The notes under the pieces: generated by a model
Database searches by the model: none
What the model was told of the DNA's origin: nothing
What the model saw: the letters and a program-made list of their open reading frames with translations, nothing else
Assembly (NCBI GenBank): GCA_965235115.1
Contig: OZ249447.1
Coordinates: forward strand, 6,324,001 to 6,388,000
Source: Laetmonice hystrix
Lineage: Eukaryota
Reading direction: 5' to 3'
DNA: 64,000 nucleotides
Position numbers and translations under genes: made by a program
Shown here: positions 31,754-45,566 of the stretch, piece after piece
How the letters are laid out: every line of letters begins with the position of its first letter
Numbering within the stretch: the stretch's first letter is position 1

Positions 31754-31806
31754 AGGCCATTCTTAATATTCCGCGCGTAAATATCCAAAACGAGGCTAAC
31801 ACAGCA
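31754..31806 (+). repeat. Left TIR of the ISL2EU-type element
   Basis: AGGCCATTCTTAATATT...CAAAACGAGGCTAACACAGCA aligns with the reverse complement of 42575-42626. The inner 21 bp are identical. Confidence 0.85.
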
Positions 31807-31841
31807 CCGCGCCGACCGCTCAATCTGTTTATGCTGCAGAC

Positions 31842-31967
31842 ATGGCCAGCTCATTTGACGAGTCTAGGGATCTTTCGCTGGTTCCCTCGATTACGTTTGC
31901 TTTTGTTGAAAATTATTTGGCAGATTTAACCACCAGTAAAGGCAGCAAGGAGCTGAATAAAGGCTTT
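31842..31967 (+). pseudogene. N-terminal fragment of the transposon exonuclease (YqaJ-like) gene
   Basis: ATG 36 bp inside the left TIR, reading MASSFDESRDLSLVPSITFAFVENYLADLTTSKGSKELNKGF before the sequence becomes non-coding-like. The assignment is inferred from position and remembered family resemblance. Confidence 0.5.
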
Positions 31968-32236
31968 TCGGGGTCGGGCGAACCCCCTTTTGGCGTACGT
32001 GCACTGGGTGTCAAGTGTAGATCAAATCAAGTACTAGGCTACTACTAGTACTACTACTACTAGATAGTAGTAGGCCACTAGACTAGACTACTGCCCGATT
32101 TCTTTCTGAATAATTGTTCAATTGTTGTTTGTTGTAATACATTAACGTTTATCTCGATATCCACGACTGTCACTAGTGGATTTAGTCTAGATCTACCTGC
32201 CACTTGACTTGTGAAGTTGTTGACAGCTGAACAGTA

Positions 32237-32832
32237 CAGTCAAGTCAGACAGAGGCGTCGTTGCCGGGACGGGCAGATCGGATTGTCGGGGGGGGGGGGG
32301 GGGGAGATTGCTGTGACTTAGCCCCCCCCCCCCCTTAGCTTAGAGGCGCTTTCCCCCCTGTTCACTGGCATATCATTTAATCCTTCATTTTGCGCTCCAA
32401 AATGCAACAAATTTCGCCAAATTGCAAGTTAATTAAATTCCATTTTTTTCGGGGGTAGACTACCAGTACTGCCCGAGCAGGGCTTTGGCCTTTGCGCCTT
32501 TCGAGCCACCCCCTTGGCCATGAAAAAAAACCTACATCTGCGCTCTAGGCAGAACAGAGATAAGATTTTAGACTTGAAATAGGGGGGTTTCCAACCATAA
32601 TATTAGCCATTCTTTTATCTATTTTGGGGGGGGGGGGGGGGGGTCCTGGAAACTCGGAAACCCCCCTGGTTTGCCTTGGGGGGGGGGGCAGGTGTTAATG
32701 TTGGGGGGGGGGGGGGGGGCACCGGTCCTGGGCCGAACCCCGTTGGCCTAATAACTAATTTCCTGGAATAATTTGAAGGGAGTTTCTAACTTTTTGCAGG
32801 GAGGGGGGCGCCCCCCGTTGGATCCGCCACTG
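32237..32832. mobile_element. Possible G-run-rich non-autonomous insertion (composite MITE fragments) inside the exonuclease gene
   Basis: Ends in GGATCCGCCACTG, a MITE-type terminus, and begins with CAGT. Flanked by the 10-bp direct repeat CTGAACAGTA (32227-32236, 32833-32842) and contains multiple poly-G/poly-C runs. The left TIR is poorly matched. Confidence 0.35.
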
Positions 32833-33062
32833 CTGAACAGTAGTGAGCTTCAGTTATTTACATGGTACTGGTATGCCTGTGGGCCATGTTAAATGATAAC
32901 ACTTTCATGTTATAAAATAAATAAGAAATCAATCTGAAACTTTACCATATCTAGGCCTACTTTAACTTCAAGATTTGTTTGTGTGGTAAAACATCCAACA
33001 TTATTCTAGGATTCATTATTTGTTTTTGTCTGTGATTCTAAGTTAATATTACCTTATTCCAG

Positions 33063-33305
33063 TAACAAGATTAACAGAAGGATGCACAGTAACCGCAAAA
33101 TGCTGGCGATCACGATTGTGGTAAGTCCTACAGCTCCCTGGCTTGCTGCAAGCCCTGACAGAAAAGTGTACAACCCTGCAAAATGTCCCCCTTTTGGTTT
33201 GTTGGAAGTAAAGTGCCCACAGGTTGACACTGTCCTAAATGCCAAATGTTTGGAGAGGTCAAAGGATGGTTCACTCCGATTAAAGCAGAACCACATATAT
33301 CATTA
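33063..33305 (+). pseudogene. Middle fragment of the YqaJ-like (lambda exonuclease fold) gene, interrupted by the retrotransposon
   Basis: VVSPTAPWLAASPDRKV...FGLLEVKCP...LRLKQNHIYH(Y) carries the ASPD and E-x-K-C-P motifs of YqaJ-type PD-(D/E)xK nucleases. An upstream VTRLTEGCTVTAKCWRS segment lies in a different frame after acceptor TTCCAG| (33062). Confidence 0.8.
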
Positions 33306-33449
33306 CCGTAAAACACTCGTAGACAAGGCGAAGTTGGGAGTTAAAATTCTTTTAATCACATTAAAAGGATAAGATGTATAAAATTATGGCACCTGGCAAG
33401 TTGTAAAATATATGTATATATATATATAAAGGCACATTGTGTGGCGCCA
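33306..33449 (-). repeat. Split direct repeat B2 (144 bp)
   Basis: Identical by eye to 33732-33875, including the (TA)n tract length. Confidence 0.95.
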
Positions 33450-33532
33450 TATATACAGAGACACGGTATGGCGCATAAAAGACAAAAACATGTTAATACT
33501 GAGCCTTTAACTTGCAGGGTGGGTGGGTGGTA

Positions 33533-33731
33533 GTAAAAGTTGTGGTCTGGTCGAAGGTTGGTGTGGAACTGACCGGTGAGAAGTGGAGTGCAGGGAATAG
33601 CCGGAAATAGTGTGACGACAGAGAATTTGGTTAACAATAGAGAGCACAGAGTGTTGGGTTAGGGAGAGTTGACCACGAGTGCCGGCAATGATCCGTCTTG
33701 AGGTGACAAGCACCCCACCACTAAACCATTA
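33533..33731 (-). repeat. Split direct repeat A2 (199 bp)
   Basis: Identical by eye to 38252-38450. Confidence 0.95.
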
Positions 33732-33875
33732 CCGTAAAACACTCGTAGACAAGGCGAAGTTGGGAGTTAAAATTCTTTTAATCACATTAAAAGGATAAGA
33801 TGTATAAAATTATGGCACCTGGCAAGTTGTAAAATATATGTATATATATATATAAAGGCACATTGTGTGGCGCCA
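33732..33875 (-). repeat. Split direct repeat B1 (144 bp)
   Basis: Identical by eye to 33306-33449 and abuts A2, recreating the circle junction. Confidence 0.95.
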
Positions 33876-33958
33876 AACCTGCAAACTATATGTAGATAGA
33901 AAGGGAGAAAGAGAGAGGGGGGAGGGGGACACGACGCAATAACTCACAAATTGTAAAA

Positions 33959-34963
33959 TCAATGACTAATCGATCTGATAAGAGTCTGGTTTACGCGTGC
34001 ACTACTTGTCCTTATATATGCGCGGTGAGCCGCAGAACGCCATCCGCCAAACCGCTGAATTTCCACTTCTTGACATCCACCTAACAAGGCTTGTGTAGCA
34101 GCCGTCTTCCGTAGACTATGTAGGCTTAATGCTGTTGCATCGGCGCCAACTGCCTGAAGCGCGGACGTCCACACTTTTTTAACATAAGATGTGGGCATTG
34201 GGGAACGGGATTCTGGGAACATGAGCAGTGGTTCGTCGGGGCACCGAGTAGGGGTGTCCGCTATTACTTGAGAGAGTACTTTGACAGGGCAGAAAGTCGC
34301 TATAGATGCCGCTGCTAGTGTAACCTGCCTTGTCTGTCCATTCTTCTGCAAGTTTTTCCCATGGCGGAGGACGATGTCCAGGGAAGTTCTGCCCAAGCGA
34401 ATGTCGCCCCTCGTAAGACAAGCACTGCTTTTCCACTTGCGTACTGTAGGCGGAGCGATTTCGCTTTGGCGAAACGCCCCATAAAACATTAAGAGTATCG
34501 CTGCTCTGACCACCGTCCCGACTGGAGTACTGGGTATAGCCCGTATGGCCCGGCGGAGTACGTCTATGTTTATCGGGAGCTTGACCCGAGGGACATGCTG
34601 CTTTGTTCTGTCCATCGCATCTAACGCGCGTTTGACACGTGGGTGGTCGACTGGCGTGAGCGGGGATTCTGTTAGACGCAGGAATGTCCGGATATGAGAT
34701 GCGTGGTTCCTGACGGTCGCGGCTGCTGGGGCGTAACCGGCGATATACTCCAGATATGCGCATATGTGTTGGTGCATCGGCCGTCGTGGGTTGATGCGCA
34801 AGTGTCGGCAGAACGCTATGTATGTTCCTGCGACTGAGTGGTGGTTCCTGTTTGTGCCCGGCGCCCTTGCTGCCTGTTGCCGTTGCTTGGCTTGCTCGAG
34901 CAGTGATCGGAATGCCGGATCTGGAATGTAACGATGGCTTGAGCATGTCCAACACATAATCAT
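33959..34963 (-). CDS. Tyrosine recombinase (phage integrase family), 334 aa
   Basis: Complete catalytic set: FYGAF-R-QSE, HG-K-N, LH-SL-R-KTAAT (HxxR), RFGG-W-RS and RA-Y-IR. Uninterrupted ORF. Confidence 0.93.
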   Translation of the reverse strand: MIMCWTCSSHRYIPDPAFRSLLEQAKQRQQAARAPGTNRNHHSVAGTYIAFCRHLRINPRRPMHQHICAYLEYIAGYAPAAATVRNHASHIRTFLRLTESPLTPVDHPRVKRALDAMDRTKQHVPRVKLPINIDVLRRAIRAIPSTPVGTVVRAAILLMFYGAFRQSEIAPPTVRKWKSSACLTRGDIRLGRTSLDIVLRHGKNLQKNGQTRQVTLAAASIATFCPVKVLSQVIADTPTRCPDEPLLMFPESRSPMPTSYVKKVWTSALQAVGADATALSLHSLRKTAATQALLGGCQEVEIQRFGGWRSAAHRAYIRTSSARVNQTLIRSISH

Positions 34964-36896
34964 ATGGCATAACTAACTTAACGTCGCTAGACGAAATGTA
35001 TTCAGCGGCTTTATCATTATAGTGTTTTGAGAGATGGGCCCTGCTAAGGACGTCGGCCGTCGAGTTATCAGCTCCAGGTACATGGTCATAGGAGATGTCC
35101 ACGTTACATATGGCCTGGTGCATCCAGACCGCCCTCGCGCACTCCAGCAGAACCTTATTCCTGCCGCGCCCAGAGCGTAATACCTGAACAGTTGCCAAAT
35201 TGTCACAATAAACTTTAATGTGGGCGCCCCTGTCAGCAGGAGTTACAAAAGTATGAAGTGCAATAACTACATTCGCGGCTTCTAGTTCGGTAATATTTGC
35301 GGCCCCATCATCAGCTGGGCACACTTGGCCGCTATACGCATAGTGTCCGTCGGTGGCGCCTATACCTGAAAGACTCGCATCTACATGAATAACCCTGTTG
35401 GGGCGCCGTGCGGTGATGTAGGAGATACCGTTCCACTGCGCAGCAAACTCGTAGAACCACCTGAGGTCGTCACGCATATGAGCAGTAATGTTAATATAAT
35501 TTCCCGACATATTTCGTAGAGCATCGAGCAACTTGGACACAAACAGTCGCGCTGGTTTAATACACTTAGCTATATGTAGAAGCTTACCAATTAGACTTCT
35601 AAGCTGCCTTTTAGTCATGGAACGCTTTTTCAAACAAAGCTTCACCTGTGCGATGACTTCTGAGAGCCGATCCTGTGGTACAGAAAGCGTCATATTCACC
35701 GTATCGATATGTACACCTAGCCAAGTTAGTTGCTGTGAAGGCGGCTGAGCTTTCTCCAACGCTTCCGGTAGGCCCAATTCACGCAGTAGGTTCCGGGTAC
35801 ACTTAAAGTCTTTGTCAGCCTGAGGCCTACTTCCGGAAATATTAATTAGGTCATCCAGATACATTTTTCCGCACACGCCCTTATTCGTTAAAATATTAAC
35901 GATGTAGTTAGCCACCCTTTGCATGTGACATGAACTTGCGCGGGCTCCAAAAGGCATGGACACGTCACAATAATACTTATTATCCCACCTTATGACTTGG
36001 AGTGGCCAGTCGAGTGGGTCAGATTTGAAGTTTTTATATGCGCGACTGACGTCACAAGTGGAAAGAAATGCACCAGGGCCAACGCGAATAAGTTCCTCAA
36101 CCAAATCATCGATAGTAGGGAGAGTATGATCTCTTACATGACCAAACACAGTGTTTTTAAAAATATAGGCATTGACAGAGTTCTCCATAGGGAAGGTCAT
36201 ATCACTGATGACACGCCTATCCTGGGAGCCCCTCTTTTCGCGAGACATTAAGGGGGAGACATGGCACCATGGTTCGAAAGGTGGACGTGGAAAGGGACCA
36301 ATGATTCCACCTAGGCGTAGTTCTTTCTCGATAAACTTGTCAATGTGATCCGTATATTGCGTAGCGCTGGAGTGGTTATCAACGTCATGTGTATCACTAA
36401 TGGGCCCCATATAACCCAAGGGGAACCCAAAGCGAATAAAGTCTAACAGTTGTTTATCGTCTTCACTATCACTCTGATATTTCACCCAAGCATTTACATT
36501 TAAATCAGTCTGTAATTCCACCCGAGCACCAAGGGCGTTAGGCAAACCCGAGGCCTTAACAGCATCGTACACTCTAAGTAGCTGACCATCTGCACTCCCT
36601 AACATGGTTGGCCAATTTTTAATACGGTGCGCCTTGAACACATATGGTGTAAGGTCTAAGGTGTGATTAAATTCGACAGCTTCGCACATGTTCTTTATGG
36701 CTTCAAAATCAGGTACACGAGTTTTAAAATAAGAGGTTTGGTCGTGTGCAGTAGGCGATTTGAACTTTGTACTGGTGTCAGGAACCGTCGGTCGCGCCTG
36801 TGAGACACGAACACGTTCAGTGTGGGCGGGTACGCGGGCATGGGACGTGATACCGCAATGCTGAGTGTCGGGACATGTATTGGCGATCGACTGCAC
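34179..36896 (-). CDS. pol: Reverse transcriptase + RNase H polyprotein (DIRS/Ngaro type)
   Basis: RT motifs HVSPLMSREK, RRVISDMTFP, DVSRAYKNF, MPFGARASS, YLDD and WLGVHID. RNase H motifs VDAS, ITELEA, YCDN and HVPGADNSTADVLSR. The frame is open from 36998; the track start at 36896 is GTG and the first ATG is at 36689. Confidence 0.95.
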   Translation of the reverse strand: MQSIANTCPDTQHCGITSHARVPAHTERVRVSQARPTVPDTSTKFKSPTAHDQTSYFKTRVPDFEAIKNMCEAVEFNHTLDLTPYVFKAHRIKNWPTMLGSADGQLLRVYDAVKASGLPNALGARVELQTDLNVNAWVKYQSDSEDDKQLLDFIRFGFPLGYMGPISDTHDVDNHSSATQYTDHIDKFIEKELRLGGIIGPFPRPPFEPWCHVSPLMSREKRGSQDRRVISDMTFPMENSVNAYIFKNTVFGHVRDHTLPTIDDLVEELIRVGPGAFLSTCDVSRAYKNFKSDPLDWPLQVIRWDNKYYCDVSMPFGARASSCHMQRVANYIVNILTNKGVCGKMYLDDLINISGSRPQADKDFKCTRNLLRELGLPEALEKAQPPSQQLTWLGVHIDTVNMTLSVPQDRLSEVIAQVKLCLKKRSMTKRQLRSLIGKLLHIAKCIKPARLFVSKLLDALRNMSGNYINITAHMRDDLRWFYEFAAQWNGISYITARRPNRVIHVDASLSGIGATDGHYAYSGQVCPADDGAANITELEAANVVIALHTFVTPADRGAHIKVYCDNLATVQVLRSGRGRNKVLLECARAVWMHQAICNVDISYDHVPGADNSTADVLSRAHLSKHYNDKAAEYISSSDVKLVMPYDYVLDMLKPSLHSRSGIPITARASQATATGSKGAGHKQEPPLSRRNIHSVLPTLAHQPTTADAPTHMRISGVYRRLRPSSRDRQEPRISYPDIPASNRIPAHASRPPTCQTRVRCDGQNKAACPSGQAPDKHRRTPPGHTGYTQYSSRDGGQSSDTLNVLWGVSPKRNRSAYSTQVEKQCLSYEGRHSLGQNFPGHRPPPWEKLAEEWTDKAGYTSSGIYSDFLPCQSTLSSNSGHPYSVPRRTTAHVPRIPFPNAHILC

Positions 36897-36927
36897 CAGC
36901 TTGGATCCTTGCTTATCGTGACTGACT

Positions 36928-36977
36928 GGCGTACCGGAGCAGACTAAATCGGACGGTACGCCTCGCGCCCGTTTTTT
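36928..36977 (-). promoter_or_regulatory. Putative -1 programmed ribosomal frameshift signal (gag to pol)
   Basis: Slippery heptamer A AAA AAC (36977-36971) in gag phase, an 8-nt spacer, then a perfect 9-bp stem GGCGTACCG (36962-36954) / CGGTACGCC (36936-36928). pol is in the -1 frame. Confidence 0.7.
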
Positions 36978-38242
36978 GATGCTTGGTCCATTCTGTTGCT
37001 ATGTGAACGAGGCCAATCGTCGTTGTGATAGTGAATGGGGGCGGTGGCCACCTGTCTAGGAGTGGATTGGGTGCCATTGTGCAATTTGCGACGGCAGACT
37101 TGGAAAGAATGATTGCAACGACGTGCGCATGCGTCGCAATACGAGCAGAGGTGCGCGTACCGGATGTTTCCTCGTTCGTGAGCGGTGTTGTATCTGCAAC
37201 CAGCTGGGCTATTGAAGTCCCGGCACACCACCTCGTCGACCTTGTTGTGGGCGTCCATCGGTCGCTTGTCGTCTGCATCGTCAGAATGCATGCTGCTCAG
37301 AGTGCCGCCCGTCATAGCCAGACGCACGCGCTCATTTTGAATAAAAGTGTGGTCGCGCCACGTACATTTTTTGTTCTCAACACAGTCCCAGACATGCTGA
37401 CTCCATTTACGCACCCCTGGCCAAGGACGAGACATGGCATCTAAAGTCACTTCATATATGTGTTGGATGATATAATTAATGTCTGCACTATCAAACGCGC
37501 GGGAGTCTCCTAGAAGGGCCAACATTGCATTGGTATATTCGAGTATGGTCAAGCTTCCCCTAACATCAAGCTTTTGTTTGAGAGTTTGTAAACCGTCCCT
37601 ATCGACATACATATACGGCTTTGCAATCATCTTAGTTACAAAAATGTCAGAGGCAATTGATGCCTTACCGTCCGTATATAGAGGGCGCATTTCTTCCCGG
37701 GCTAGTTGTCCGTCGACGTAACCATCTCTGTTCGCCTCCGCCCTCAGGGTGCGTGGCGGGGGGAGGGCGGCATGTTCGTCATGCCGTGCGGCACTGTGCC
37801 GCCTGTGACGGGCTGTGGGTGCCTGCTCAACTTGGCGGGCTGGCGACATGTCTTGTGGGCCGGGGTCTGTACCTGTAGCGTTGAGTGACCGGTGAAGCGT
37901 AGTACCTGGTGACTGTGGGCGGCGTGGTGGAGTGCTACGTGCTGCCGGACCGTCCTGACTCAACGTGGCACTGAGCAACAGGTCTAGTTTATTGCTCATA
38001 TCAGATACTTGGTTTTTGACGCCGTCCATCTCGCGTTCGATGTCTTGAAGTCGGTTGACCGTGGACGTCTGGGGCGTGCGACCCTGCAAGTTCGAGCTCG
38101 AAGTGTGCAGGCAGTCGGCTTCGACACTATTGGCCAATGTGTCACTCTGCTGAGAAATGTTACCTTCTTCAGGGTGGGCGTTACGATTTTTCTTCTTTTT
38201 AGACTTCGTGCAGGCTCGGGTACGAGTTTTTGGTGGTGCCAT
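36944..38242 (-). CDS. gag: Gag-like ORF1 of the YR retrotransposon, 432 aa from ATG 38242
   Basis: First ATG 10 nt inside A1 (MAPPKTR...), a predicted coiled-coil segment (VNRLQDIEREMDGVKNQVSDMSNKLDLLL), a helical core (...DAMSRPWPGVRKWSQHVWDCVE...W.D...) and a C-terminal Cys/His cluster (CRDFN...C...H...H.CSYC...H...C). The track ORF from 38356 uses a non-ATG start within A1. Confidence 0.88.
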   Translation of the reverse strand: MAPPKTRTRACTKSKKKKNRNAHPEEGNISQQSDTLANSVEADCLHTSSSNLQGRTPQTSTVNRLQDIEREMDGVKNQVSDMSNKLDLLLSATLSQDGPAARSTPPRRPQSPGTTLHRSLNATGTDPGPQDMSPARQVEQAPTARHRRHSAARHDEHAALPPPRTLRAEANRDGYVDGQLAREEMRPLYTDGKASIASDIFVTKMIAKPYMYVDRDGLQTLKQKLDVRGSLTILEYTNAMLALLGDSRAFDSADINYIIQHIYEVTLDAMSRPWPGVRKWSQHVWDCVENKKCTWRDHTFIQNERVRLAMTGGTLSSMHSDDADDKRPMDAHNKVDEVVCRDFNSPAGCRYNTAHERGNIRYAHLCSYCDACARRCNHSFQVCRRKLHNGTQSTPRQVATAPIHYHNDDWPRSHSNRMDQASKNGREAYRPI

Positions 38243-38251
38243 AATGCAGTG

Positions 38252-38450
38252 GTAAAAGTTGTGGTCTGGTCGAAGGTTGGTGTGGAACTGACCGGTGAGA
38301 AGTGGAGTGCAGGGAATAGCCGGAAATAGTGTGACGACAGAGAATTTGGTTAACAATAGAGAGCACAGAGTGTTGGGTTAGGGAGAGTTGACCACGAGTG
38401 CCGGCAATGATCCGTCTTGAGGTGACAAGCACCCCACCACTAAACCATTA
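38252..38450 (-). repeat. Split direct repeat A1 (199 bp), 5' end of the retrotransposon
   Basis: Identical by eye to 33533-33731. Confidence 0.95.
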
Positions 38451-38610
38451 TCAAGTGCAAGCACAGCTTGCAGTCACAGGTTTACAATGGTGTGACTTCT
38501 ATGTATGGTGCCCAAATGATTACCATCTTGAATCAGTAGAGTTTGATAAGGCTTTTTGGAATTTGGTGAAAGACAGGCTGGATATTTTCTACTTTTGTTA
38601 CTTCATATAA
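38451..38610 (+). pseudogene. C-terminal fragment of the YqaJ-like exonuclease gene
   Basis: (Y)QVQAQLAVTGLQWCDFYVW...FDKAFW...RLDIFYF* carries the YQVQ.QL....WCDF motif and continues the 33082 frame exactly once 33306-38450 is removed. Confidence 0.88.
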
Positions 38611-38956
38611 ACTTAGCCTAGGTAGGGCAACATACATCTTGATAATTGCTTAGCCTAATCATATACCGGTATATTTCAAAACTTGCTTTATCTGACACTG
38701 ATCGTGATGTTGGGGAAAATACACGTCAGACAGATATCATGTTCTTATGTCAATTTATTGACTGTATCCCTGAATACAGGAGTAAGTTGTATTGAAATAT
38801 ATATTATATTGAACTGGACCATTCTTGTTTTACCATTATATTCACAGATGGTCGAACATAAACAATTTAAATTAGGGTCATTTTATTCATTCTTATTCCA
38901 ACTGCCTAATCACTTTCAGCATGACAATATTTATTTATTTTAAACATCAAAATTTA

Positions 38957-39384
38957 ATCATCAATGCTCGTGAGGATTGAGAAATGTGCAATACAACATA
39001 TTCATTCAAGTTCCTGCAATTAAGGGGCCTTGAAAGTTTGAAAGAACGTAAGTAATCGTCCAAATCTGATTTATTGACCCCAAAAGGGAAAGAGGGATAG
39101 GGGAATTATAAATGTGAAATTCTTTTATCCGTCGTATTGCACGTTCAACATGAATCCTCACCTTTGCTATTTCTTAAGTACGTGCAATTTCATCACTATT
39201 GAAACGACCATGGTGTAAAAATGGAGGAATGTTTAGATGGACACCTTTCTCAGCTAACAAGCTGCTGATAGTGAAACCTTTATCAGCCATTACTTCATCA
39301 CCAAACTCTAACAAATCAAGTAAACCACTCAATTTAGTTATTTCCACATCTGACATAGAACCACTGAAAAGCTGAGAAACAAAA
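38957..39384 (-). pseudogene. Tandem duplicate of the transposase 3' end and 3' flank (~428 bp)
   Basis: Copy of 39385-39819 with about four substitutions (one makes a stop at 39174-39176) and a ~7-bp indel. Confidence 0.9.
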
Positions 39385-39440
39385 ATCATCAATGCTCGTG
39401 AGGATTGAGGAATGTGCAATACAACTTACAAGATATTCAT

Positions 39441-41275
39441 TCAAGTTCCTGCAATTAAGGGGCCTTGAAAGTTTGAAAGAACGCAAGTAATCGTCCAAAT
39501 CTGATTTATTGACCCCAAAAGGGAAAGAGGGATAGGGGAATTATAAATGTGAAATTCTTTTATCCGTCGTATTGCACGTTCAACATGAATCCTCACCTTT
39601 GCTATTTCTTGAGTACGTGCAATTTCATCACTATTGAAACGACCATGGTGTAAAAATGGAGGAATGTTTAGATGGATACCTTTCTCAGCTAACAAGCTGC
39701 TGATAGTGAAACCTTTATCAGCCATTACTTCATCACCAAACTCTAACAAATCAAGTAAACCACACAATTTAGTTATTTCCACATCTGACATAGAACCACT
39801 GAAAAGCTGAGAAACAAAAGTAACAGAGCCATGAGGTGCAATGCCAACCAAAGCTTTAAGGGTGTGAGTGCTCTTGTAATTTGAATAAAGTTGACTAGAC
39901 AAGATGAGAGATGATGGGGTCTGGGTAAATATTTCAGTGCAGTCAATAATAACTCTAGTGTTGGGAAATGCATCTCTAAAAGTCTTGGGCAATTTTCGCA
40001 AAATAACATGTTTTGGTAGCCAAAGAGGCATGGCACCAAACAGAAAATATAGAAAGTTTGCCTAAGTTACTAATTTTCTACTAACTGTGGCCAAAGAGCA
40101 GTCGAACATATGAGCCAAAAACTTTTCTAACAAGCCGAGACGAATGCGAACCAAAAACATAAAAAATTCATCAAACAAAGTCATGCAGCGTTTCCTCCCT
40201 GCCATTGAAATAGTGTCACTGGCAACATAGTACATGCTTGCCATATTGTTGGCAGAACTCTTAATAAAACTGAAAAAGGTAACAAGCTGAACATATGATT
40301 GGAATCCAGTAAAGTATTTCACGGTAGAATCGTCTGTCCCAAGTCGCTCCAGACCAAACCTTTCAATCTTCATTTCCTTCAGTTGTTTGTTTTCTAACTC
40401 TAATTCGCGTATCTTTGATTGTAGTTCCGCTACTTCAGCGTCAGCATCTTCTTTACTTGTAGACTTATCACTGAAATGGAAAAATATTCTTAATTTCATG
40501 TAAGGTAAATGCTCCTACTGTCCAAATTCAGCAGTCTCACGTTTTATAATGTTTAAAACAAAATCTGTCTTTAACCGTTTTGTCAACAAATGTTATTTGA
40601 GAGTACAGGGTTTTATAGTTTTATATAGCCCATCTTTTATACACATACGTTTCAAGATTTTCTTCAATATCCATATCCTCCACATCACAAGGCGACGCAC
40701 GACTGGAATCATGTCGCTGCAGTACCCTTCGTTTTGCTCCCTGGGTCCAGCTGAATACACTTGGCACTGCCTCTGGCTTCAAAGTCCTCCGTACAGGCGT
40801 CCATTTGAAATCAGCGGGAAGAAAGTGCGCTGAACATACAACTGTTCCAGCAGTAACCTACAAATTGTATTCATGATTTATTCAATTTTCAAGATTTAAG
40901 CCAAGCTGAAAAATATGGATTCTCAAAATAACTTAAGAATTTGATAAAACAAGGATTAGAACTTTCAGAACCAATTTAAGCTTAATCCATACAATTAATC
41001 TTAATTTAATATTATATTATTAGAATTTTGTTCTTTATGCCTTTTTTATATTACATGGAAATATCTATTTTCTAAACTACCTTATTATTTTTCAAACCAC
41101 TCACCTGAAAGTGTTTTCCTTCGTCCCTTCTAATCTTCACCAGCCATACTTTTTTTGCTTTCTCATCCTTTGGGAAAGAATGAAATGATAAGCTTTGACC
41201 GCTTTGAAATCTTGAGTCATTGCTGCAGGTGGGAACACAACAATGACGAGAAACCTTGGAACCAGCTGTTGACAT
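39441..41275 (-). pseudogene. THAP-domain DDE transposase (Harbinger/ISL2EU family), 3 exons, one premature stop
   Basis: Exons 41275-41105, 40857-40649 and 40470-39441 have GT-AG introns in compatible phases (0, 2) and total 470 codons. THAP signature CCVPTC...FHSFP...W...C.AHF...AVPSVF; DDE motifs IIDCTE, MADKGF and IHVERAI. TAG at 40064-40062 sits where Trp is expected (VT*ANFLY). Confidence 0.9.
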
Positions 41276-41950
41276 GTCATTCTCCTTGACTGTAGGGCAT
41301 GAAGTCTAGTAGTAGTATTCTGAGTCTGTAGAAAAGATATTTCAATTACTTATATACTTATTATTGATAATTAAGTTTCATTCAAACATCAAATAATTTC
41401 TTAATATATAGATCTACTTTCGGACATTTTAATTATGATTGAAAGTGAAATGTAAAATGTAGACCCCCCACCCCCATCGGCCCAGTCACTGGCAGGGGCA
41501 CTCTAGACTACGACTCGTGCGAGGCTAAAGAAATGAAGCACTATACAGTATACTAGACGAGTATAGTCATACTCAAGTCATAGACTGTAAAAGTAAAAGT
41601 GAGTAGGCCTAAAGCACACGCAATCGTCAATGACAATGTCAATGTAATCTTTAACAAACTCCCCCACCTAGACCCTACAAATTGTAGTATTCCTACAATG
41701 ATCTACATTATCATACATGCCTAGATCTACATCGTCATGGTCATGGCCAGGCCCATGTCACGGCCATGATCATAGACCATGTAGAGTCTAGACATACTAG
41801 CTAATCATAGGCACCGGACCGGGCATGGGCAGCTATCTAGACCGACAAACACAGGCTCACAGCCCTTCCCCATTCCACTGACTCACTGAGGCCCCCACCC
41901 CCTCGTCTGGGTTGAAAATCACTCAAATTTAGGCCTACAAGTTAGCCTAA

Positions 41951-41983
41951 CCATAGATCAATGAGTTACTCATTGATCTATGG
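41951..41983. repeat. Perfect 33-bp palindrome (16-bp arms, 1-nt centre) within a larger imperfect hairpin
   Basis: CCATAGATCAATGAGT-T-ACTCATTGATCTATGG, with outer arms GGCCTA/TAGGCC and AGTTAG/CTAACT. Confidence 0.9.
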
Positions 41984-42574
41984 CCTAACTTAGGCCATGA
42001 TCATGGACCTGGCAAGGTAAAATGACTCAGTCTAACGTTCTACTTAGCGCCTACCCGTCCCAGTCCCAGTCCCACACTGGACGAATGTCGATAGACCTAA
42101 CGTTAGGGCGTTTTCATTCACTCGACATGGATTCTGTCGTTTTGCATAACAACTGATCAAGATTCAAGCCCATCACGTCGATGTTCACTTTTGCCAGTTT
42201 GGGGAGCTTTGCATAGGGTACATTAGCTGCCACGTTAGTCGTTAGTATAGTACATTAGTAATAGTAGGCCTACAACGTAAAGCCAGAGTCTAGTCGAGAG
42301 CAGTGTTGTTGACTGTTGACAGTGTTGACTGTTGTCGGCCTAACTACTGTCACGTACAGTACTGAGTAAGTAGAATCTCTAACGTTACTAAACACTAGTA
42401 ACAGAGCCTATACTACACATCTAGAATATATTTAAACATAAATTATAATAGAGTCTTAGTACACAGGAAATATAAAAAGGAATTGAAGACCTACCTACGA
42501 CTACGTCGTCGGCTCTCGGCCCTAGGCCTACGTCAAAGGACGGTGATGCCACGTGATGCCGTCCCCGCTCTGGT

Positions 42575-42626
42575 TGCTGTGTTAGCCTCGTTTTGAAATC
42601 GCGTGCATAAATATTGAGAACGGCCT
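42575..42626 (-). repeat. Right TIR of the ISL2EU-type element
   Basis: TGCTGTGTTAGCCTCGTTTTG...GAGAACGGCCT followed by AT. Confidence 0.85.
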
Positions 42627-43260
42627 ATCTTTTCAAATGATCGGGTTTAATTTCTAATGAAATCCTACTGAAGAGATAATTGCAGGATTGGAGGTTTTCA
42701 TAGAATGTCATGACTTTTGACTCCCGAAATTATCTAGTTGGTATTTCAGAGTAATATTTTCTGTGTGGCTAATGAGTCATGGATCTCTAGAATATAGGTT
42801 AAGGAGTTTTAGTCACGTCAATGTCAGTGTATCCATGCATAGCGTTCCAGTTGCGCCGAGCTGTTGACAGGGGAGGGGGCTCCTTAGCATTGACAAATGT
42901 CTTACTTGGTATCAAAGGGGTGATTGCGATTGTACCAGGGGACAAAACTTCCCCCAGGACCCCCGTATCAGGAGGGTTTCCGAGGAAATATTGCCATGGC
43001 AACAGGCCGCCATGTTTTGTTCCGACAGTTGAGAGGTCATGAGATGAATGGGTATTATAGTACTGGTCATGTAACTTGTAAGTACGTTGTGTTGTAGAGT
43101 TGGCATGTCTGTGTTGTTGTATCCCGCCAAATGTTGGTTGATACCGGCTCATGAAAAACGTCATTTAAAACGCTTTCTTCATACATTATAACGTCTTGAA
43201 ACTTTCAATTTATTAAACGTTCTTAGCAAGCCTAGCTTTACCCTGAAAGGAATCACTCTA

Positions 43261-45566
43261 TGGAACCAACGCGGCATCACTCAATACAACTCTTGGAACC
43301 AACGCGGCATCACTCAATACAACTCTTGGAACCAACGCGGCATCACTCAATACAACTCTTGGAACCAACGTGGCATCACTCAATACAACTCTTGGAACCA
43401 ACGCGGCATCACTCAATACAACTCTTGGAACCAACGCGGCATCACTCAATACAACTCTTGGAACCAACGCGGCATCACTCAATACAACTCTTGGAACCAA
43501 CGCGGCATCACTCAATACAACTATTGGAACCAACGTGGCATCACTCAATACAGCTCTTGGAACCAACGCGGCATCACTCAATACAACTCTTGGAACCAAC
43601 GCGGCATCACTCAATACAACTCTTGGAACCAACGCGGCATCACTCAATACAGCTCTTGGAACCAACGCGGCATCACTCAATACAACTCTTGGAACCAACG
43701 CGGCATCACTCAATACAACTCTTGGAACCAACGCGGCATCACTCAATACAGCTCTTGGAACCAACGCGGCATCACTCAATACAACTCTTGGAACCAACGC
43801 GGCATCACTCAATACAACTCTTGGAACCAACGCGGCATCACTCAATACAGCTCTTGGAACCAACGCGGCATCACTCAATACAACTCTTGGAACCAACGCG
43901 GCATCACTCAATACAGCTCTTGGAACCAACGCGGCATCACTCAATACAACTCTTGGAACCAACGCGGCATCACTCAATACAACTCTTGGAACCAACGCGG
44001 CATCACTCAATACAACTCTTGGAACCAACGCGGCATCACTCAATACAACTATTGGAACCAACGTGGCATCACTCAATACAGCTCTTGGAACCAACGCGGC
44101 ATCACTCAATACAACTCTTGGAACCAACGTGGCATCACTCAATACAACTCTTGGAACCAACGTGGCATCACTCAATACAACTCTTGGAACCAATGCGCCA
44201 TCATTCAATGCAACTCTTGGAACCAACGCGGCATCACTCAATACAACTATTGGAACCGACGTGGCATCACTCAATACAACTCTTGGAACCAACGTGGCAT
44301 CACTCAATACAACTCTTGGAACCAACGTGGCATCACTCAATACAACTATTGGAACCAACGCGGCATCACTCAATACAACTCTTGGAACCAAGGCGGCATC
44401 ACTCAATACAGCTCTTGGAACCAACGTGGCATCACTCAATACAACTCTTGGAACCAACGCGGCATCACTCAATACAACTCTTGGAACCAAGGCGGCATCA
44501 CTCAATACAGCTCTTGGAACCAACGCGGCATCACTCAATACAGCTCTTGGAACCAACGCGGCATCACTCAATACAACAACTCTTGGAACCAACGCGCCAT
44601 CACTCAATACAACTCTTGGAACCAACGCGGCATCACTCAATACAGCTCTTGGAACCAACGTGGCATCACTCAATACAGCTCTTGGAACCAACGCGGCATC
44701 ACTCAATACAACTCTTGGAACCAACGCGGCATCACTCAATACAGCTCTTGGAACCAACGTGGCATCACTCAATGCAACTATTGGAACCAACGCGGCATCA
44801 CTCAATCCAACTCTTGGAACCAACGCGGCATCACTCAATACAACTCTTGGAACCAACGCGGCATCACTCAATACAACTCTTGGAACCAACGCGGCATCAC
44901 TCAATACAACTCTTGGAACCAATGCGGCATCACTCAATACAGCTCTTGGAACCAACGCGGCATCACTCAATACAACTCTTGGAACCAACGCGGCATCACT
45001 CAATACAACTCTTGGAACCAACGCGGCATCACTCAATACAACTATTGGAACCAACGCGGCATCACTCAATACAGCTCTTGGAACCAACGCGGCATCACTC
45101 AATACAGCTCTTGGAACCAACGCGGCATCACTCAATACAACTCTTGGAACCAACGCGGCATCACTCAATACAGCTCTTGGAACCAACGCGGCATCACTCA
45201 ATACAGCTCTTGGAACCAACGCGGCATCACTCAATACAACTCTTGGAACCAACGCGGCATCACTCAATACAACTCTTGGAACCAACGCGGCATCACTCAA
45301 TACAACTCTTGGAACCAACGTGGCATCACTCAATACAACTATTGGAACCAACGTGGCATCACTCAATACAACTCTTGGAACCAACGCGGCATCACTCAAT
45401 ACAACTCTTGGAACCAACGCGGCATCACTCAATACAACTCTTGGAACCAACGCGGCATCACTCAATACAACTATTGGAACCAACGCGGCATCACTCAATA
45501 CAACTCTTGGAACCAACGCGGCATCACTCAATACAACTATTGGAACCAACGCGGCATCACTCAATA
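43261..45566. repeat. Large tandem array, 33-bp unit, ~70 copies
   Basis: GGAACCAACGCGGCATCACTCAATACAACTCTT repeated with few variants and one 3-bp insertion near 44577. Open in two + frames and one - frame. Confidence 0.97.

Follow-up and report, generated by a model that had tools for sequence, protein, structure and literature searches.

A predicted −1 ribosomal frameshift cassette at the gag/pol junction, and a predicted gag-to-recombinase splice, in a Ngaro-type retrotransposon of Laetmonice hystrix

Ngaro elements are defined by split direct repeats in the order A1-ORFs-B1-A2-B2 (PMC8547959, PMC9210276); those described from Cafeteria (PMC8547959), Xenopus (DIRS-53_XT, PMC9210276), and fungi (PMC3783388) carry gag, reverse transcriptase/RNase H (RT/RH), and tyrosine recombinase (YR) genes between A1 and the B1A2B2 repeats. 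Here and throughout, statements from the literature refer to those parts of the cited papers that were covered. The window analyzed (the whole stretch of 64,000 nucleotides, positions 6,324,001 to 6,388,000 of the forward strand of Laetmonice hystrix contig OZ249447.1, assembly GCA_965235115.1) contains an element of the same layout, A1-gag-pol-YR-B1-A2-B2, which spans 38450–33296 on the minus strand (5155 nt; window coordinates throughout). Like known Ngaros, it has overlapping open reading frames (ORFs), a short identical junction sequence at both ends, and no methyltransferase that could be found; compared with them, it lacks an SGNH hydrolase ORF. For translation of the second and third ORFs in the DIRS order, one passing proposal was found, that of Poulter and Butler 2015, quoted in PMC13003380, according to which the YR ORF, overlapping RT/RH in the −1 frame, "probably" depends on programmed frameshifts for its translation. 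In the window element, by contrast, YR lies in the +1 frame relative to pol and has splice-like signals flanking it, and the pol/YR overlap of 794 nt departs from PMC3266345, where Ngaro elements usually have no ORF overlaps. The accounts of known Ngaros give no gag/pol slippery site, unlike the element described here. In the literature covered, no report of such a site, or of a gag-to-YR splice, was found for Ngaro or DIRS elements; Poulter and Butler 2015 and Goodwin and Poulter 2004 may say more, also on gag/pol.

At its gag/pol junction, the element resembles retroviruses and animal long terminal repeat (LTR) retrotransposons: an X XXY YYZ heptamer in the gag frame, a spacer of 5–9 nt, a 3′ structure, a short −1 overlap, and no start codon of its own for pol. 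The mechanism of −1 frameshifting is itself textbook knowledge, and HTLV-2 gag-pro combines the same heptamer with a plain hairpin as stimulator. Unlike the pseudoknot of MMTV type, the stimulator in the window is a predicted plain hairpin of 9 bp. LTRs, protease, and DDE integrase, present in retroviruses and LTR elements, are missing from the window element, whose integration relies on a tyrosine recombinase; a further difference is that a single heptamer seems to be fixed throughout the clade sampled. On mammalian ribosomes, A_AAA_AAC ranks with the heptamers most prone to shift, the usual spacer is 5–9 nt, and pol is at −1 in 28 of 51 animal LTR elements, many of them with classical heptamers; PEG10 is covered as well (PMC5009743). 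The terms DIRS, Ngaro, and tyrosine recombinase do not occur in the part of PMC5009743 that was covered.

From the anatomy of the junction and its traces in related proteins, we consider it very probable that −1 frameshifting at A AAA AAC yields a Gag-RT-RNase H protein of 1354 amino acids (aa), and quite probable that the explanation as a whole, a frameshift cassette together with a spliced YR, is correct. The features concerned are as follows.

36944..38242, minus strand: ORF1, putative gag; 432 aa, C-terminal Cys/His cluster, variable tail ending S-K-N-G-(9 aa)
34179..36998, minus strand: ORF2, pol; 939 codons, −1 to gag; unconserved linker of ~90 aa, RT (aa 280–431), RNase H-like region, tail
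36971..36977, minus strand: slippery heptamer A AAA AAC; gag frame TCA AAA AAC, X XXY YYZ phase
36963..36970, minus strand: spacer, 8 nt; same spacing implied in relatives
36928..36962, minus strand: predicted stimulatory hairpin; 9-bp stem formed by 36962–36954 with 36936–36928, 17-nt loop

The pol frame is closed upstream by TAG at 37001–36999, opens at 36998, and runs to 34179; it overlaps gag by 55 nt in the −1 frame. The hairpin loop contains the gag stop codon (TAG, 36946–36944), no ATG occurs in pol before 36689, and the predicted fusion comprises 424 + 930 = 1354 aa. The following had been claimed in the preliminary description, and each point held on recalculation: the opening, closing stop, and overlap of pol; the heptamer and its phase; the perfect stem, the loop with the gag stop, and the 8-nt spacer; the absence of a pol ATG before 36689; and the length of the fusion. 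As in canonical cassettes, the heptamer is in the zero frame, the −1 frame is open across it, and the predicted 3′ structure begins 8 nt away. Among nine strict heptamers in the 5155-nt element, only the one at 36977–36971 is paired with a 9-bp stem; perfect stems of at least 9 bp with a loop of at most 30 nt number two, one in the cassette and one in the terminal repeats. In the predicted fold (200-nt context), all nine stem pairs have a probability of 0.96–1.0, and the hairpin energy is −15.6 kcal/mol. With thresholds chosen after the site was seen, an in-frame strict heptamer arose by chance in 2.4% of random 18-codon gag stretches, and a stem of this kind at spacer 5–10 in 16 of 20000 shuffles. 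The check for a pseudoknot suggested in the preliminary description was negative: within 60 nt downstream, the best loop-to-downstream helix was 5 bp, below the shuffle mean of 6.4, and a stimulator of MMTV/IBV type was rejected; the stimulator looks like a plain hairpin. No Rfam family matched the cassette; a single chance match (E 3.9) lies outside it.

Conservation was read from proteins; a search for DNA of relatives gave one locus, the distant L001, in metagenome contigs, and none in viral contigs or prokaryote genome contigs. A profile search with ORF1 gave 1088 relatives at E≤0.001; the best 150 listed, with five from another search, made 153 distinct proteins, of which the 112 with a C-terminal Cys/His cluster were used and the 41 without it were dropped. 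The relatives are 26–53% identical to the window Gag (median pairwise identity 34%), and a search of the ESM Atlas gave eukaryotic clusters only. Lys-Asn (KN), the gag-frame reading of AAA AAC, occurs within the last 25 residues of 98 of the 112 Gags (P0183, probably a chance KN in a truncated tail, is among them), compared with a mean of 11.5 and a maximum of 22 in 2000 trials with shuffled tails; without four members of the search profile, the count is 94/108. The 20 residues preceding KN have a mean ungapped identity of 6% to the window. The gag stop follows KN by at most two codons in 73/98 (range 0–22; ten in the window). The residue before KN is P in 50, S in 32, A in 12, T in two, I in one, and Q in one, every one of which can be encoded by a codon ending in A; residues that cannot were found there in 0/98, against 30% of tail residues. 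The remaining 14 Gags have KK[R/L] (four), KKK (one), or [Q/P]KT (three), or are truncated or uninformative (six); the endings KK[R/L] (pol frame), KKK, and [Q/P]KT (third frame) are what these bases would give outside the gag frame. In P0307 and P0310, two members of one cluster, gag ends in one, and the −1 frame runs on into RT in the other. P0046, P0084, P0181, P0202, P0224, and P0310 were considered as natural in-frame Gag-Pol fusions; this reading was rejected because P0310 and P0307 are one family and the frame change lies upstream of the site, and the in-frame proteins were used solely as read-outs of the pol frame.

The position of the stem also appears to have left a footprint. Among 12 pol-frame peptides, picked by hand, nine have Gly three residues after KK (linker background 7%); among 25 long Gag tails, 22 have Ala at KN+4 and 18 have Pro at KN+5. 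These residues would fit a GC-rich 5′ arm that begins 8 nt past the heptamer, the distance seen in the window. Taken together, the gag-frame and pol-frame footprints, mostly from different elements, point to A AAA AAC. By this protein footprint, the heptamer is conserved across about a hundred diverged relatives. The preliminary description had offered the lack of a heptamer in relatives as a possible refutation; at the protein level, its footprint is there, as KN in 98/112 Gags and as KK[R/L]xxG in the pol frame.

Some observations weigh against the cassette as described. The regional folding energy is ordinary (z −0.45 to −1.31). The conservation is at the level of protein, and the sole relative with DNA, L001, has no heptamer and an in-frame TGA instead. 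For the 3′ arm, support from relatives is weak: back-translation gave a score of 66 versus 55.5 ± 3.2 (0/300 shuffles), with no single peptide significant and the peptides picked by hand; the set used excluded the window, P0083, P0238, and P0260, and added P0310, P0037, and five long Gag tails. It supersedes an earlier set that included the window and the false junctions P0083, P0238, and P0260 (48 vs. 38.25, P 0.005). In L001 (503–3751), gag and pol are in one frame, split by the single TGA (TGA CTC), and the first Met of pol comes after YLDD; the arrangement points to readthrough of the stop codon, or else to a nonsense mutation of a single copy.

For the third ORF, we judge it reasonably likely that the recombinase is made from a spliced RNA as a Gag(1–191)-YR fusion, a splice that the preliminary description did not mention. 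The features concerned are as follows (a slash marks the splice point).

33959..34972, minus strand: ORF3, tyrosine recombinase (YR); 337 codons, in the frame of gag, +1 to pol
37663..37671, minus strand: predicted 5′ splice donor ACG/GTAAGG; exon end 37669, phase 1, codes Gly192-Lys193
34921..34936, minus strand: predicted 3′ splice acceptor CATCGTTACATTCCAG/; downstream exon starts at 34920, YR frame, TTCCAG/ at 34921/34920

The acceptor at the head of YR reads TTACATTCCAG/AT at 34921/34920, with a pyrimidine tract of 10/14. Joining 37669 to 34920 removes 2748 nt and gives an open Gag(1–191)-YR frame of 511 aa. The donor codons encode Gly-Lys in 101 of 113 Gags (shuffled mean 5.9, maximum 16) and Gly-[Lys/Arg/Asn] in 112 of 113, at 10–17 (once 25) residues from the next motif; the base at donor position −3 can be A or C in 107/112. 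For the acceptor, 108 of 120 pol homologues were anchored; 85 extend past the site and 23 end at or before it, a few of the latter being mis-anchored or truncated. Arg is found at the acceptor in the pol frame of 81/85; the residue before it has codons ending only in pyrimidines in 23 of these 81, only in purines in one, and is Ser in 54. Conservation of YR starts at the acceptor, where 10/10 aligned homologues have a residue with a G-initial codon. The locus L001 (33% RT identity; its Gag matches weakly, E 9e-5) has, in its DNA, a phase-1 donor AAG/GTAAGG and an acceptor TTTCAG/AG in its YR frame; the acceptor is in frame there even though pol and YR stand in another frame relation than in the window. 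A predicted U2-type donor and acceptor in matching phase are found on DNA in the window and L001, with footprints in 112/113 Gags and 81/85 pols. A gag-to-YR splice would then be common to distant Ngaro lineages that, like L001, would reach pol by stop-codon readthrough.

Several points count against this splice. No clear branch point consensus was found before the acceptor; no Gag(N)-YR fusion protein was found among 31 YR homologues (185–590 aa), whose sources are mostly, probably, DNA assemblies; and Gly-Lys at the donor could be kept for protein reasons. YR also has ATGs of its own at 34963 and 34957, in frame and 12–14 codons upstream of the acceptor, and a start has been called upstream of the acceptor in 10/29 homologues. 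YR might be translated from one of these ATGs, or by a frameshift from pol into YR, the route that Poulter and Butler suggested for other Ngaros (quoted in PMC13003380) and for which the 794-nt overlap of the pol tail with YR would leave room. We regard this alternative, which concerns the splice part only, as rather unlikely. Seventy ATGs precede the YR ATG; in 19/29 homologues, no start has been called before the acceptor (some may be truncated by contig ends); and L001 has no Met until about YR residue 40. YR is in the frame of gag, +1 to pol, and therefore a −1 shift out of pol cannot reach it; nor was a pol-frame heptamer found in the overlap. In about 20 pol homologues, the frame ends right at the acceptor, which speaks against this alternative. 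The pol frame is open for ~245 codons into the YR ORF (34920–34179), likewise in many homologues, and the pol tail past the acceptor looks dispensable. Between the YR stop and B1 (33947–33879, minus strand), a donor-like GTGAGT, a long pyrimidine tract, and TTTGCAG were observed; they look like an intron of ~69 nt or a second strong acceptor.

Three further explanations concern pol. The first is that pol, too, is reached by splicing, from the donor 37669/37668 to an acceptor at the gag stop (36946–36944) or at the stem end (36928–36926), the heptamer being incidental. It draws on the strong donor of the element and on weak acceptors at 36946 and 36928, which lie downstream of the pol-frame stop, in frame with the phase-1 donor, and are moderately rich in pyrimidines (9/14); these also tell against the frameshift. 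We find it very improbable: KN with a preceding A-ending codon in 98/112 hypervariable tails would be left unexplained, a TAG that ends gag within a −1 overlap will always count as an in-frame acceptor, the position of the gag stop shifts from 0 to 22 codons after KN, and the product would lack the conserved Gag core. As little credence is given to the second, in which pol is translated from its own ATG at 36689 (through a subgenomic RNA, reinitiation, or internal entry); here the hairpin would have a role in packaging or in stabilizing the RNA, and the terminal Lys-Asn would be a motif of the protein. The Met at 36689 (pol Met104) is kept in 36/91 aligned homologues, and the ~90-aa linker from the heptamer to conserved pol is unconserved in sequence and length (67–182 aa), as this explanation would allow. 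Against it, 55/91 homologues have another residue or a gap at Met104, most pol alignments begin ~10 residues upstream of it, 31 ATGs precede it, and the pol of L001 lacks any Met before the end of YLDD; pol is unlikely to be initiated independently. Moreover, KN is followed by 0–22 residues and is therefore not a fixed C-terminal motif, and the bias before KN follows codon endings. The third, a transcriptional slip in which RNA polymerase II or reverse transcriptase adds an A in the A6 run, would likewise conserve the A-run and give the same fusion frame, and is hardly credible given a run of just six A and a conserved final C, reading phase, and GC arm 8 nt downstream that match ribosomal geometry (PMC5009743).

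Under the favored combination of frameshift and splice, the expression of the element would proceed as follows; slippage, splicing, protein ratios, and the packaging roles of the RNAs are what we infer from the anatomy. Most ribosomes would read through the heptamer and stop ten codons past it, giving Gag. As retroviruses and LTR retrotransposons suggest by analogy, in a minority tRNA-Lys and tRNA-Asn would slip back in tandem by one base on A AAA AAC while the hairpin is positioned at the entrance of the mRNA channel, which would give the 1354-aa Gag-RT-RNase H and set a high ratio of Gag to Gag-Pol. The phase-1 donor 37669/37668 would join the YR-head acceptor 34921/34920, the intron taking out the cassette, RT, and RNase H. 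The unspliced RNA would be the genome and the Gag/Gag-Pol mRNA, and the spliced RNA the integrase mRNA. Spliced subgenomic RNAs serve for retroviral and gypsy env, foamy-virus pol, and Drosophila copia gag. As in these, balanced splicing of one genomic RNA would give the downstream protein while the unspliced RNA stays genome; unlike in these, splicing is predicted to yield the integration enzyme, joined to residues 1–191 of Gag, and the predicted intron consists of the frameshift cassette, RT, and RNase H. We lean slightly toward extending the scheme to a whole clade of Ngaro elements, probably of animals, in which one RNA would give three products much as in retroviruses: Gag by default, Gag-Pol by a −1 shift at an invariant heptamer with hairpin, and YR as a spliced fusion to the Gag N-terminus.

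The repeats that bound the element are as follows.

38249..38450, minus strand: left terminal repeat A1; 202 nt, 100% identical to A2; element start is TAATG 38450–38446
33722..33875, minus strand: repeat B1; 154 nt, 99% identical to B2; its end overlaps the A2 start at the TAATG junction; bounds approximate
33530..33731, minus strand: repeat A2; partner of A1
33296..33449, minus strand: repeat B2; element end is TAATG 33300–33296

On repeat order, ORF order on one strand, and absence of a methyltransferase, the element is classified as Ngaro-type (DIRS order); the preliminary description had spoken of a YR retrotransposon and of related Ngaro families, with which the split direct repeats and the order gag, RT/RNase H, YR agree. 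ORF1 has no significant match in Pfam, and its putative label "gag" is by position only, as in Ngaro papers. Pfam matches in the window are RVT_1 (E 1e-10) and Phage_integrase (E 7e-9); the RNase H-like RVT_3 scores E 0.13 in the window and was found in 7/43 aligned pol members. R168, H285-x-x-R288, W311, and Y319 of YR are what we take to be the catalytic set of the family. No methyltransferase was found after RNase H by Pfam (pol residues 700–939, E≤1; 43 alignment members), and no inverted repeat of at least 20 nt bounds the element, whereas DIRS1-like elements have inverted terminal repeats and an internal complementary region. PAT elements carry a methyltransferase; a PAT-like element was considered and rejected, in that its split direct repeats fit and the methyltransferase was not detected by Pfam. 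PAT-like elements are grouped by split direct repeats together with a DIRS1-type pol (PMC3266345, PMC9210276).

TAATG is present at both element ends and at the B1/A2 junction, and as a single copy in an empty-site allele found in contigs, which joins 33300 to 38446 over five shared letters; the pattern is consistent with insertion by the recombinase at a target identical to the circle junction. Contigs of four runs match the element almost base for base; the matching contigs represent one sample, possibly the source of the window itself. One DNA contig (depth ~468) covers 35929–38278 with three differences and no gap; contig depths were not taken as a measure of copy number. Near the cassette, the contigs of two runs are broken, and variants there were judged among those listed, so that minor ones are possible. 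A copy-specific indel or assembly error behind the −1 overlap was considered and rejected on the gap-free contig and the family-wide Gag stop after KN. The element is young; no second copy was found within the 64-kb window. Contigs ~90% identical over 35334–35958, at about one-tenth of the depth, point to a related second family in the same sample.

The retrotransposon is nested in a DNA transposon-like unit of ~10.8 kb (31786–42595) with perfect 21-nt terminal inverted repeats, ORFs with DDE_Tnp_4 and HTH_Tnp_4 at 39441–40514, and a YqaJ-like ORF (33010–33372, E 6e-4) that is interrupted by the insertion of the retrotransposon. We take this host unit to resemble ISL2EU/Harbinger-type elements. 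A tandem duplication of 435 nt, 96% identical (38971–39705), lies in the 3′ end of its DDE transposase, and an array of 33-nt minisatellite units, 97–98% alike, is present at 43129–43989 and beyond.

What is described here is a known mechanism in an element order for which, in the literature covered, its documentation was not found, together with a new splice model for the recombinase; it supplies exact, family-wide, and testable signals for the pol and YR ORFs. If true, −1 frameshifting would extend to a retroelement order without LTRs or a DDE integrase, and about a hundred natural variants of one frameshift cassette would be at hand. Annotation would be corrected: pol and YR are now called from an arbitrary Met, whereas the proteins actually made would be Gag-Pol and Gag(N)-YR. 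A spliced YR would replace the proposed frameshift from pol to YR, and the reported link of Gag to target choice might tie directly to the integrase.

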